Shown here one piece after another: positions 16,258 to 43,770 of a stretch of 64,000 nt of DNA. The notes under the pieces are model-generated. The model made no database searches. It saw nothing but the letters and a program-made list of their open reading frames with translations, and was not told where the DNA came from. Within the stretch, counting starts at the first letter, position 1; each line of letters begins with the position of its first letter. Both the position numbers and the translations under genes were made by a program. The DNA comes from Klebsiella phage RCIP0020: the sequence record OR532814.1. One strand, given 5' to 3'.

Positions 16258-16287
16258 AATATAGCAAAAGCCCCTGACCGAAGTCAA
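16258..16287 (-). promoter_or_regulatory. sigma70-type early promoter: -35 TTGACT (inside a terminator hairpin loop), 18-nt spacer, extended -10 TGCTATATT
   Basis: read on the - strand; a hairpin GCCCCTGAC-CGAA-GTCAAGGGC spans 16270..16291 with U-runs on both strands. Confidence 0.6.
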
Positions 16288-16298
16288 GGGCTTTTTCA

Positions 16299-16526
16299 TC
16301 ATTCATTCGAATCTTTCATTGTTTTATGAAGATGAATATCAAAAATTTTCCAGTACGCCTTTCCGCGAGGATAAATTTTTGCTTTGTCAATATCGTTGTT
16401 GCTTCCCCATGTGTTGTTTGGGCCACGACATCGATTTTTTATATAATCTGTATGCCAGAATAAGCGCTGAACCGATGATTCCGTACCTAATGGATCTTCT
16501 TTACTGAACAGAATTTGTATACTCAT
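16299..16526 (-). CDS. hypothetical protein, 75 aa
   Basis: ATGA-coupled to the upstream ORF; followed by a bidirectional terminator. Confidence 0.4.
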   Translation of the reverse strand: MSIQILFSKEDPLGTESSVQRLFWHTDYIKNRCRGPNNTWGSNNDIDKAKIYPRGKAYWKIFDIHLHKTMKDSNE

Positions 16527-16942
16527 AAGAAGAACCCAGTGCGAACAATCAGATCGATTTTCTTTTCAGGTTCAAACGGTGATTTGCTATCGATGTTACA
16601 CTGATAGAACATACCAACATACTTTTCAGGAATGTTGGATTCACGCGCCCATTTCAGGTTATCATCGGTATTCGGCCCCAGCATGAGGTTAACAACATCA
16701 ACAGCATAATCCTGTTCTTTGGTGTTGCCGGAACCGTTTACATAATGCCCGTGGGCGGTTTTGAGGATCTCAATTACTTCGCTATCGTCGGTTTCGACTT
16801 TGTAAAGCGTTGTATTTTCAGGAATTTCTTCAAGAATGATCAAAGCGGTTTTCATCACACTTACCTTTGTGTTTCTGTTTACGTTTTGCTTCTTTAAATG
16901 CTCGCTTGCGATCGCGGTGAGTAGAAGCGCGGTTGAAATCAT
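16523..16942 (-). CDS. hypothetical protein, 139 aa (alternative start MKTALIILEE at 16854 with RBS AAAGGT)
   Basis: ORF track; two plausible starts. Confidence 0.45.
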   Translation of the reverse strand: MISTALLLTAIASEHLKKQNVNRNTKVSVMKTALIILEEIPENTTLYKVETDDSEVIEILKTAHGHYVNGSGNTKEQDYAVDVVNLMLGPNTDDNLKWARESNIPEKYVGMFYQCNIDSKSPFEPEKKIDLIVRTGFFL

Positions 16943-17008
16943 GTTTCGCTACCAAATTATTCATATAAGCCCCTTAAAGAAAAATATTTAGGGGCTTTCG
17001 CCCCTGTA

Positions 17009-17257
17009 TTAATCCAGCAATTTGCGGATCTTGTCTGCGATACGTCCGGCACGGGTTGCGCTTTCGGTATGATTGCTTTCTTTGGTAGCCAGTTCAGCCA
17101 GCTTACGCTGATGTTCTTCTTCTGCTGCTTGGCGATCTGCTGCAACCTGTGCAACCTGCTCATTATCGTGAGCAATACGCGCTTCCAGTTCAGACAGGGT
17201 TTTGTCGAAAGTTGCTACGATTTCATCTACAGAACGAATTTTATTAAACAGTTTCAT
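17009..17257 (-). CDS. hypothetical coiled-coil protein, 82 aa
   Basis: Ala/Glu/Gln-rich heptad-like sequence; GC hairpin at 16989..17004 downstream. Confidence 0.5.
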   Translation of the reverse strand: MKLFNKIRSVDEIVATFDKTLSELEARIAHDNEQVAQVAADRQAAEEEHQRKLAELATKESNHTESATRAGRIADKIRKLLD

Positions 17258-43053: not shown

Positions 43054-43099
43054 TGGATCTTGTCTTCTCCATTAATATAATGTTCCATTGTATCACCAC

Positions 43100-43429
43100 C
43101 TACAGCAAATTCAAGTTTACTCGATGTTCTAAAACCAACAACCCTTCTGCTAACAAGTCACGGATCTTTCTCAGTTGAACAAGCTGGCGTTCAAGTTTAA
43201 ACCCGTCGAATAACATGCTAAAAATACTGGAATTGATACTATGATATTTTGCTTCTGCAATGCCCTGATTAACCATCATGATAGCTTTGTTAACCAGTAG
43301 TTTCCTTTCCGTTACTGTATGTTCATCCAGTTGACAGGTTGCAAGGGAAACCAGATCATCATAAGCACGTTGATCAATAACGTTATCAATACGGGCCGCG
43401 AAAATTTTATTCATGTAAGTGCGGATCAT
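43100..43429 (-). CDS. hypothetical protein, 109 aa
   Basis: ORF coupled to the downstream one. Confidence 0.5.
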   Translation of the reverse strand: MIRTYMNKIFAARIDNVIDQRAYDDLVSLATCQLDEHTVTERKLLVNKAIMMVNQGIAEAKYHSINSSIFSMLFDGFKLERQLVQLRKIRDLLAEGLLVLEHRVNLNLL

Positions 43430-43713
43430 TGCGCGTCCTCCATTCTTTTCATAAAGACTTCTTTTGCTTGTTGGATCAATTCCAGAGATTTTTTAATACG
43501 CTCATAGAAATGAGTGGTTTCAACTTGATTGCATAACAATGTGTACTCTGAAATGTTACGATCGTAAAATCCAGGAAAGTAGTGTTGTGCATAGCTGTAA
43601 GTGCGGGTATCTGACAGATTGCAAGTTAACGATAACAAGATGTCATCTTTTACAATCGGGATGATCAAAGTTTCGTTGGATTTGATTGAATCCATGATTT
43701 CGTTAATAGTCAT
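43426..43713 (-). CDS. hypothetical protein, 95 aa
   Basis: RBS GAGAGGGA; own promoter. Confidence 0.5.
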   Translation of the reverse strand: MTINEIMDSIKSNETLIIPIVKDDILLSLTCNLSDTRTYSYAQHYFPGFYDRNISEYTLLCNQVETTHFYERIKKSLELIQQAKEVFMKRMEDAQ

Positions 43714-43741
43714 AATATATCCCTCTCAATGGTGTACACCC

Positions 43742-43770
43742 AATATAACAAAGCCCCTGCACGAATGCAA
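43742..43770 (-). promoter_or_regulatory. early promoter: -35 TTGCAT (in hairpin loop), 17-nt spacer, extended -10 TGTTATATT
   Basis: - strand: AAAGCCCTTGCATTCGTGCAGGGGCTTTGTTATATTGGG. Confidence 0.6.

Follow-up and report, generated by a model that had tools for sequence, protein, structure and literature searches.

A compact cassette, in which a terminator-like hairpin and a sigma70-like promoter occupy the same bases, fills five intergenic gaps on the - strand of a 64,000-nucleotide (nt) stretch of the genome of Klebsiella phage RCIP0020 (OR532814.1; hereafter, the window). The window as a whole is ~99% identical to Klebsiella and Escherichia phages of the genus Slopekvirus (Straboviridae, T4-type myoviruses), and a 4-kb stretch around the sites shows 99.5% identity to Escherichia phage phT4A and to many Klebsiella phages of this genus. 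The T4-type affiliation is also apparent from the gene content of the window, which includes rIIA/B, ndd, dda, dexA, gp43, regA, gp45/44/62, gp32, and gp55. As judged from annotated sister genomes, the - strand block at ~14.9-49.9 kb corresponds to the classical T4 prereplicative region. Its gene order, read along the - strand from 49.9 kb, is rnh, dsbA, gp33, gp59, gp32, rpbA, gp45, gp44, gp62, regA, gp43, uvsX, gp41, gp61, dda, dexA, the topoisomerase subunits, rIIA, rIIB, and ndd, with numerous small unnamed open reading frames (ORFs) interspersed among the named genes.

Each cassette takes up an entire gap of 63-88 nt between the stop codon of one gene and the start codon of the next, and the parts always come in the same order: an A-tract, a GC-rich hairpin of 12-14 bp, a T-run, an extended -10 element of the form TGnTAT(A/C)TT, and the ribosome-binding site. 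From the upstream stop codon to the hairpin it is 3-12 nt, and from the -10 to the next ATG 20-38 nt. An earlier sequence-only reading had proposed five promoters on this strand; all five were located where that reading had put them, and their -35 elements, 17-18 nt spacers, and extended -10s could be read off directly. The 16-kb cassette (16219..16298) spans the gap between a stop codon at 16301-16299 and an ATG at 16218. It consists of a 13-bp hairpin with a UUCG loop (16295-16266) and a promoter (16287 to 16258) in which the -35 TTGACT (16287-16282), an 18-nt spacer, and the extended -10 TGCTATATT are followed by the predicted +1 region ATCGAAAC (16251-16244). The 22-kb cassette (22092..22162) lies between the gene for the topoisomerase II medium subunit (stop 22165-22163) and an SprT-like ORF (ATG 22091); here, a 12-bp hairpin with a 3-nt loop (22158-22132) overlaps a promoter (22150 to 22122) with TTGCAA, a 17-nt spacer, and again TGCTATATT. 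At 28 kb, the cassette (28456..28543) separates the ORF 28544-28846 from an 87-codon ORF (28192-28455) and has the longest stem, 14 bp, with a 3-nt loop (28531-28501); the promoter (28521 to 28493) reads TTGCAT, 17 nt, TGGTATCTT, with the +1 region ATCGAAAC at 28486-28479. The 29-kb cassette (29221..29283), between a LysM-domain gene (stop 29286-29284) and a 49-codon ORF (ATG 29220), combines a 12-bp hairpin with a UUCG loop (29280-29253) with the promoter TTGACT, 18 nt, TGTTATATT (29273 to 29244). The 43-kb cassette (43714..43781) is located between regA (stop 43784-43782) and the small ORFs that precede the DNA polymerase gene gp43 (ATG 43713), with a 12-bp hairpin and a UUCG loop (43777-43750) and the promoter TTGCAT, 17 nt, TGTTATATT (43770 to 43742). 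The conserved +1 region (C)ATCGAAAC thus follows the -10 in two of the five window cassettes, those at 16 and 28 kb. Among the genes directly downstream, four have no Pfam match above the curated cutoff (two show sub-threshold matches only), and the fifth is the SprT-like one.

Folded as RNA, the five stems comprise 12-14 pairs, with folding free energies (dG) of -17.1 to -22 kcal/mol and z-scores of -2.8 to -5.5. The sequence-only reading had the -35 element in the hairpin loop. The RNA folds do not agree: four to five of its six bases are paired at the top of the 5' arm, and only the last one or two reach the loop. At the 16-, 29-, and 43-kb sites, the five uppermost pairs are made by TTGAC or TTGCA on the 5' side, and the UUCG loop begins with the sixth base; at the 22- and 28-kb sites, TTGC is paired, and the final two bases of the -35 lie inside the 3-nt loop. 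All five sites carry a sigma70-like motif, TTG(A/C)NN, 17-18 nt, TGnTAT(A/C)TT, with an A-rich tract upstream. The GG said to follow the -10 is present in three sites and missing from the other two. The strings that had been quoted as near-identical flanks are the + strand reading of the -10, the T-run, and the 3' arm of the stem, that is, the cassette itself.

The other half of each site has the composition of an intrinsic terminator, namely, a GC-rich stem-loop and a U-rich tract of ~7-8 nt, on the sense strand and 3' of a gene. The tails after the GC core in the five sites are UUUUGCUA, UUUUUGCU, UUUUUGGU, UUUUGUUA, and UUUGUUAU. A terminator scan lists four of the five: the 28-, 29-, and 43-kb sites are the best matches of their respective regions, and the 22-kb site appears near the bottom of the table, as a 5-pair stem; the 16-kb site is unlisted under the scan rule. 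Several GenBank records independently label these positions as terminators.

An unbiased repeat search of the 14-50 kb portion of the window ranked the five-copy cassette family first. When a composite was defined as a stem of at least 9 pairs with a T-rich tail, a TTG within the 5' arm, and a -10 at 16-19 nt, the window yielded 6 sites, compared to 4 in total over 60 first-order Markov random windows (~0.07 per window). The sixth match (14413-14391, - strand) is antisense within the + strand holin gene, and we treat it as unrelated. This hairpin, 9 bp, GCCCTTGTA-TCGAC-TACAAGGGC, contains TTG, with TATCAT at 19 nt, and is conserved in sister phages without A or T tracts; it may be a chance occurrence or an antisense signal. 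Rfam, searched at gathering thresholds, gave no match anywhere in the window.

The family extends well beyond these five copies. In the complete assembled genome of a sister phage, vB_KM5a1_KLB10 (174,281 bp), an nhmmer profile built from the copies detects 14 full cassettes at E <= 2e-12, along with partial ones. They are found on both strands, always co-oriented with the flanking genes, after nrdD, after the DNA ligase gene, and in blocks of small ORFs, that is, in early or variable regions; the late structural modules of KLB10 contain no full cassettes. The copies are alike over ~70-95 nt, including the upstream A/T-rich part and sequence that neither function needs. Some pairs located on opposite arms of the genome and on opposite strands are alike over the whole ~95 nt compared (KLB10 93578 versus the 28-kb copy), which argues for copying and against convergence. 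The proposal that a terminator-promoter unit is reused and copied through the early regions is supported by these 14 co-oriented copies and by the ~70-95 nt that they share. The leader (C)ATCGAAAC(G)AAAC at the predicted start site is exact in 7 of the 14 KLB10 copies, with two near variants. It is also kept across Slopekvirus and the RB43-like phages and may serve in promoter escape, mRNA stability, or translation. On the - strand of the window, ATCGAAAC occurs at 16244-16251, 27859-27866, 28135-28142, and 28479-28486, and so is present in both partial copies described below; the leader 8-mer alone is not enriched in the window (7 found versus 4 expected).

A profile search of the window recovered the five sites and two partial - strand copies. 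One of these is a degenerate cassette (28116..28194) that keeps the 17-nt upstream segment TAGCATTTTTTGTTAAA, the -10 TGGTATAGT, and CATCGAAAC, with the stem and the -35 decayed; it is the downstream repeat flanking the 87-codon gene. The other (27843..27905) is a promoter-only relative that consists of AAAAAAGCCTTGCAT, 17 nt, GATATAGT, and then CATCGAAACGAAAC, and lacks the 3' arm of the stem. The converse is observed as well: a second repeat family in the window consists of plain terminators of the form GGGGC-UUCG-GCCCC plus a T-run (27501-27477, 40348-40324, and 45761-45744, - strand), with relatives at 36665-36648 and 25416-25399 (- strand). The forms within this family are AGGGGC-UUCG/UACG-GCCCCU plus a T-run or AAGCCCC-GAAA-GGGGCUU, and its members sit after gp43, after gp45, and after small ORFs, without the -35 and -10 features. 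The presence of plain terminators and promoter-only copies in the same phage indicates that terminator and promoter are separable modules that are fused in the cassette. Elsewhere in KLB10 (14254-14288), a little past the nicotinamide phosphoribosyltransferase gene, a cassette-like hairpin with TG-TAAAAT (CCCCTTGTAGCTCGCAAGGGGCTTTTTGCTAAAAT) falls within sequence annotated as coding, which means either an internal signal or a spurious call of the small ORF.

Covariation among the copies points to selection of the stem as RNA. The analysis covered 14 diverse copies with a 9-4-9 geometry, that is, a 9-pair core; a first MAFFT alignment of 13 paralogues was structurally inconsistent and was set aside. 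In the core, 97.6% of the cells are standard pairs, compared to 88.5% in shuffles (none of 500 shuffles reach the observed value), and 10 cells are changed on both sides, against 3.6 expected (again, 0 of 500 shuffles). Sliding the partner columns by 1-3 positions reduces the pairing to 32-56%. The only three unpaired cells all come from one row (kM130643), which MAFFT misaligned owing to its 3-nt loop. The two apical pairs, which involve positions 4 and 5 of the -35, occur as A-U, C-G, G-C, and U-G. All 14 genomic copies contain 1-3 G·U pairs, and the mean dG over these copies is -18.9 kcal/mol for the sense RNA versus -12.8 kcal/mol for the antisense strand, a difference of ~6 kcal/mol. Taken together, the compensatory changes, the G·U pairs, and the asymmetry between the strands show that selection acts on a hairpin of the sense RNA rather than on a symmetric DNA palindrome.

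The 5' arm of the same stem is under a further constraint. The TTG columns are invariant in all 14 diverse copies while their pairing partners vary (A/G, A/G, and C/U), so that it is the sequence of the 5' arm that is constrained, whereas the 3' arm has merely to pair with it; this points to the use of TTG in a -35. The columns of the T-run plus G and of TAT..T are invariant in this set as well, and TG plus TAT..T is found at a fixed distance of 17-18 nt in every copy from both genera, Slopekvirus and the RB43-like Pseudotevenvirus. Both stem-decayed copies retain the -10 and the leader, and one of them retains also the -35. A MotA-type middle promoter, with a TGCTT box at -30, was considered and rejected, given that the spacing between TTG and the -10 is 17-18 nt, as for a sigma70 -35. 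RB43-type phages have been reported to lack motA and middle-promoter motifs (PMC1524935). The small ORFs adjoining the holin gene, considered as candidates for AsiA, gave no Pfam match, and we make no claim of AsiA resistance for the TGn extended -10.

We conclude that the five sites are very probably composite cassettes of the promoter-early stem-loop (PeSL) type known from T4-type phages. The predictions of termination, initiation, and start site draw on the sequence and on reporter assays published for the PeSLs of phages RB49 and phi1. In the RNA of the upstream gene, the A-tract, the GC-rich stem, and the U-tract would fold as an intrinsic terminator and provide a protected 3' end. In duplex DNA, the same bases would be read by the host sigma70 RNA polymerase as an early promoter, with the upper 5' arm serving as the -35 (TTGNNN), the T-run and G as the spacer and the TG of the extended -10, and TAT(A/C)TT as the -10. 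The start of transcription would be ~7 nt beyond the -10, ahead of the ribosome-binding site, and for several copies would coincide with the A of the ATCGAAAC leader; the predicted 5' end of the transcript at the 16- and 28-kb sites is 5'-AUCGAAAC... Such an overlap of signals would save space and insulate each small early gene as a transcription unit of its own. In addition, the ~70-95 nt repeats could serve as portable linkers for phage homologous recombination, whereby a gene between two copies would be deleted, inserted, or exchanged.

The PeSLs were described in RB49 and phi1 (Arbiol et al. 2010, Genome Biol Evol 2:140; PMC2839356) as a sigma70-like early promoter that comes with a stem-loop and with an AT-rich stretch on its upstream side; the element is delimited by the stop codon of the preceding gene and by the Shine-Dalgarno sequence and start codon of the following one. 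Five subclasses were distinguished by the position of the stem-loop, one of which overlaps the -35; there are ~50 PeSLs per genome, in hyperplastic regions upstream of ORFans, with copies on both sides of gene 43; lacZ reporters demonstrated both terminator and promoter activity; and the elements were proposed to drive gene and modular shuffling, including via mini-circles (PMC2839356). Compared by the text of that paper, the Slopekvirus cassettes are similar in that a promoter and a stem-loop form a composite in the stop-to-start gap, with an AT-rich upstream part; in the overlap of stem and -35; in the presence of many copies in hyperplastic early regions; and in the location mostly upstream of ORFans, with a copy adjoining gene 43 and with flanking genes that differ between relatives. 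PeSL-like sequences were also mentioned at the g43 locus of RB43 (PMC2839356), and these are the counterpart of the 43-kb cassette. The differences are equally clear. There is no detectable sequence similarity between the RB49/phi1 PeSLs and the Slopekvirus cassette, although the authors require none, the lineages having separate sets. The Slopekvirus stem reads A3-5 GCC(C/UC)-TTGNN...GGGC-U3-5, as opposed to poly-G...poly-C in RB49/phi1, and has one fixed geometry, with the -35 in the upper 5' arm, rather than five placements. All Slopekvirus copies have a TGn extended -10, and there are 14 full copies per genome compared to ~50.

A subsequent study of the T4/PST and KVP40/nt-1 phage pairs (Comeau et al. 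2014, Genome Biol Evol 6:1611; PMC4122927) showed that each phage lineage has its own set of PeSL sequences and that degraded copies occur. The nt-1 consensus in that study, with the stem A3-4 G3-loop-C3 T3-4 and the promoter TTGYVH N17 TAWWAT (PMC4122927), resembles the Slopekvirus cassette, with its A-tract, GC core, T-tract, and TTG(A/C)NN N17-18 TAT(A/C)TT. Degraded copies that keep only some of the parts are likewise found here, at 28194-28116 and 27905-27843. The phages of the two pairs belong to lineages other than Slopekvirus and the RB43-like Pseudotevenvirus and have different stem sequences. Beyond the mention of the RB43 g43 locus, neither of these two papers contains an analysis of Slopekvirus or the RB43-like genera. 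In the KP15/KP27 genome paper and in the five-genome paper that includes RB43, promoters and terminators were predicted separately, and the composite was not noted. A looser parallel is offered by the morons of lambdoid phages, which are promoter-gene-terminator units (Hendrix et al. 2000, as discussed in PMC2839356). Like the genes served by the cassettes, these are small accessory genes with their own promoter and terminator, expressed independently of the neighbours; however, the signals of morons do not form conserved repeats, and no part in the mobility of the gene is ascribed to them, whereas here a single repeat holds the exchange breakpoints. In sum, the features of PeSLs that can be assessed in sequence are present in the Slopekvirus cassettes, and the corresponding activities are predicted. 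The repetition in hyperplastic early regions is evident, though with a lower copy number than the ~50 of RB49, and so is the association with indels, in the replacement of 28196-28463 discussed below and in the homology between genera that ends at or just after the 29-, 22-, and 43-kb cassettes. The cassettes are a lineage-specific set of an already published kind of element, a new example and no new regulatory principle.

A 67-nt cassette query matches 190 phage records, at 9-11 places per genome in Slopekvirus and 4-6 in the RB43-like group. The carriers in the latter group (Pseudotevenvirus) are RB43, RB16, Lw1, Citrobacter phages CfP1 and Margaery, and Enterobacter and Cronobacter relatives; apart from these two groups, there are three weak single matches, in Pectobacterium phage CB7, Cronobacter phage CR8, and Klebsiella phage KLB26. 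The distribution was the same in an IMG/VR pattern scan, which also turned up a few unrelated contigs with lookalike units. Several of these carry repeated units of their own (L022, L046, L050, and L053; L013, L025, L055, and L076; L017, L024, and L061), for example, AGAGCCCTTGCTCATGCAGGGGCTTTTTTCTTATATTGATCGATATTTATAACAAAG, in 2 copies within one 4.7-kb contig. The design with a TTG in the stem, a T-run, and TATATT may recur in other phage groups, with the caveat that the search pattern forced those features.

The genes of the RB43-like Enterobacter phage CYPEBC003 are ~67-81% identical to those of the window, and this phage carries cassettes at positions syntenic to those at 16, 22, 29, and 43 kb, that is, four of the five window sites. 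The 28-kb site lies in a stretch without homology between the two genomes, and both have a cassette there. Homology to CYPEBC003 stops exactly at the -10 of the 29-kb cassette (window position 29243) and ~150-260 nt downstream of the 43- and 22-kb cassettes. Thus, the gene directly 3' of a cassette tends to be the variable one.

Within Slopekvirus, we traced one replacement of the gene between two copies. In phages PhiK2046 and R2_1, window positions 28196-28463, on the - strand, which hold the 87-codon ORFan between the 28-kb cassette and the degenerate copy, have given way to 527 bp of unrelated sequence, a module that holds several small ORFs. The R2_1 record contains an N-run beside the cassette; the identical module of PhiK2046, which has no Ns, settles the replacement. 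The left breakpoint falls within the leader of the 28-kb cassette (…CATCGAAACGAAACAGA|) and the right one within the upstream portion of the degenerate repeat (TAGCA…). A leader variant found at other cassettes, GACAAAAGGAAC, comes with the incoming module. This is a recombinational exchange between cassette copies. An autonomous mobile element was rejected: there is no transposase, there are no target duplications, and four of the five sites are syntenic across genera. Of the suggestion of a mobile or copied module, the copying stands, with the gene between copies swapped in sister phages, and the autonomous mobility does not; homologous recombination explains the copying better. The cassettes are copied linkers that are used occasionally.

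Several observations weigh against the identification of these sites as PeSL-type cassettes. A search of the literature for Slopekvirus transcript maps found none, and both termination and initiation are predicted. Apart from the three weak single matches, the cassette has no detectable similarity to sequences of phages other than Slopekvirus and the RB43-like group, and no RB49/phi1 (Krischvirus) record is among the matches to the 67-nt query; on sequence grounds, it is an analogue or a lineage-specific set rather than a homologue of the PeSLs first described. In this genus, moreover, shuffling is seldom seen, with the arrangement at 27.8-29.3 kb kept in ~108 of ~110 Slopekvirus genomes, and most of the other indels in the 13-46 kb region coincide with homing endonuclease or extra-ORF annotations of sister phages or with a different hairpin. 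Furthermore, promoter-like hexamer pairs are not enriched in the region (45 found versus 46.9 expected), and three of the five sites have weak -35s, TTGCAT matching the consensus in 3 of 6 positions and TTGCAA in 4 of 6. Given the lack of enrichment and the score of TTGCAT, the case for the promoter has to rest on conservation and not on the consensus score.

The last two points are also the strength of an alternative, that these are plain intrinsic terminators whose AT-rich tail and TTG-bearing stem give rise to promoter-like hexamers incidentally; it fits, too, with the database records, which give only "terminator" at these positions. Hexamers of incidental origin would not, however, keep TTG invariant in 14 of 14 copies while the partners vary, which pairing alone is insufficient to explain, nor hold TG and TAT..T at a fixed 17-18 nt in every copy of both genera. 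Moreover, the stem-less copies retain the -10 and the leader, and in one case the -35, whereas the GGGGC-UUCG-GCCCC family of the same phage has none of the promoter features, so we consider this alternative very unlikely. The sequence-only reading had offered a regulatory interpretation of the overlap, in which the -35, being single-stranded or paired depending on the hairpin, would allow termination upstream to switch the promoter directly and so couple it to re-initiation. The -35 and the stem do use the same bases, and the overlap of terminator and promoter is complete. Nevertheless, region 4 of sigma70 reads the -35 as duplex DNA, and a terminator hairpin forms in the nascent RNA; it follows that the state of the hairpin cannot hide or expose the -35. 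The folds, which place the -35 in the stem and not in the loop, contradict such gating, as do the G·U pairs and the asymmetry of the strands: on the other DNA strand, the G·U pairs become A·C mismatches, the antisense fold is ~6 kcal/mol worse, and no symmetric cruciform is conserved. Nor does the promoter seem to need a hairpin, since promoter-only copies without the 3' arm retain the -35, the -10, and the leader. We see almost no room for a hairpin-gated -35.

A coupling of termination to re-initiation could be rescued by a different, documented route, in which the RNA is released and the RNA polymerase remains on the promoter and re-initiates, so that the overlap would hand the enzyme on to the next gene. 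With a series of cassettes, one polymerase would be passed along, and newly acquired genes would be expressed in proportion to the upstream traffic. Single-molecule studies (PMC6978380, PMC10372574) offer a precedent for such recycling: once intrinsic termination has occurred, Escherichia coli RNA polymerase often remains bound to the DNA and goes on to re-initiate at promoters nearby. At the cassettes, the predicted release point falls inside the promoter. Re-initiation in this type of experiment is said to still need rebinding of sigma. Nothing in the sequence sets recycling apart from simple compaction, and the existence of plain terminators without promoters and of promoter-only copies indicates that the halves work apart; we regard recycling as very unlikely. 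The repeat might, instead, be a site that acts as DNA, either an operator for a dimeric regulator or a cruciform target of a structure-specific recombination protein such as endonuclease VII. Arbiol et al. speculated that a recombination protein might bind the conserved PeSL stems (PMC2839356), and module exchange does happen at the cassettes. Against this, the apical stem varies with pairing kept (AC/GU, CA/UG, CC/GG, CG/CG, and UA/UG), the loops vary as well (UUCG, GAAA, UUUC, UCCG, and 3-nt loops), and owing to the G·U pairs the repeat is imperfect as DNA. The breakpoints of the swap, in the leader and the upstream A/T-rich part and not in the stem, fit ordinary homologous recombination. 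A DNA site of either kind accordingly deserves hardly any credence.

The identification of these units as PeSL-type cassettes bears on annotation, evolution, and experiment. The 63-88 nt gaps in Slopekvirus and RB43-like phages, which in current records are labelled as terminators only or are unlabelled, should be annotated as composite terminator/early-promoter units; many of the carrier phages are therapy candidates against Klebsiella, Enterobacter, and Cronobacter. With respect to evolution, this is a further T4-type lineage with apparent PeSL-type cassettes, and it provides one clean module exchange between two copies. The unusual uniformity of the family, with its fixed geometry, 9-bp core stem, and invariant TTG, makes it a convenient natural test set for the question of how one sequence meets the constraints of RNA structure and of DNA recognition together.

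Some features of the same region lie apart from the cassettes. The AT-rich divergent gap at ~49900-50200, between rnh (- strand) and the late sigma factor gene gp55 (+ strand), contains several strong promoter-like sites on both strands, such as TTGACT-16-TACAAT at 49946-49919 (-) and TTGATC-17-TATAAT at 49981-50009 (+), none of them with a stem-loop. At 16965-17007, the 43 nt of the window correspond to 270 nt in phage P61_1; this indel is located at a small hairpin, AGGGGC-GAAA-GCCCCU (17005-16990), 3' of a small ORF, which is not a composite cassette. At 32628-32649 and 33175-33229, the sister phages phT4A, P61_1, and R2_1 carry insertions of ~0.5-0.9 kb that are absent from the window; at the former point, a homing endonuclease is annotated in phT4A, and R2_1 has extra ORFs, all hypothetical proteins. 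Both insertion points are near dda-proximal small ORFs, the NTP pyrophosphatase gene, and the primase gene.

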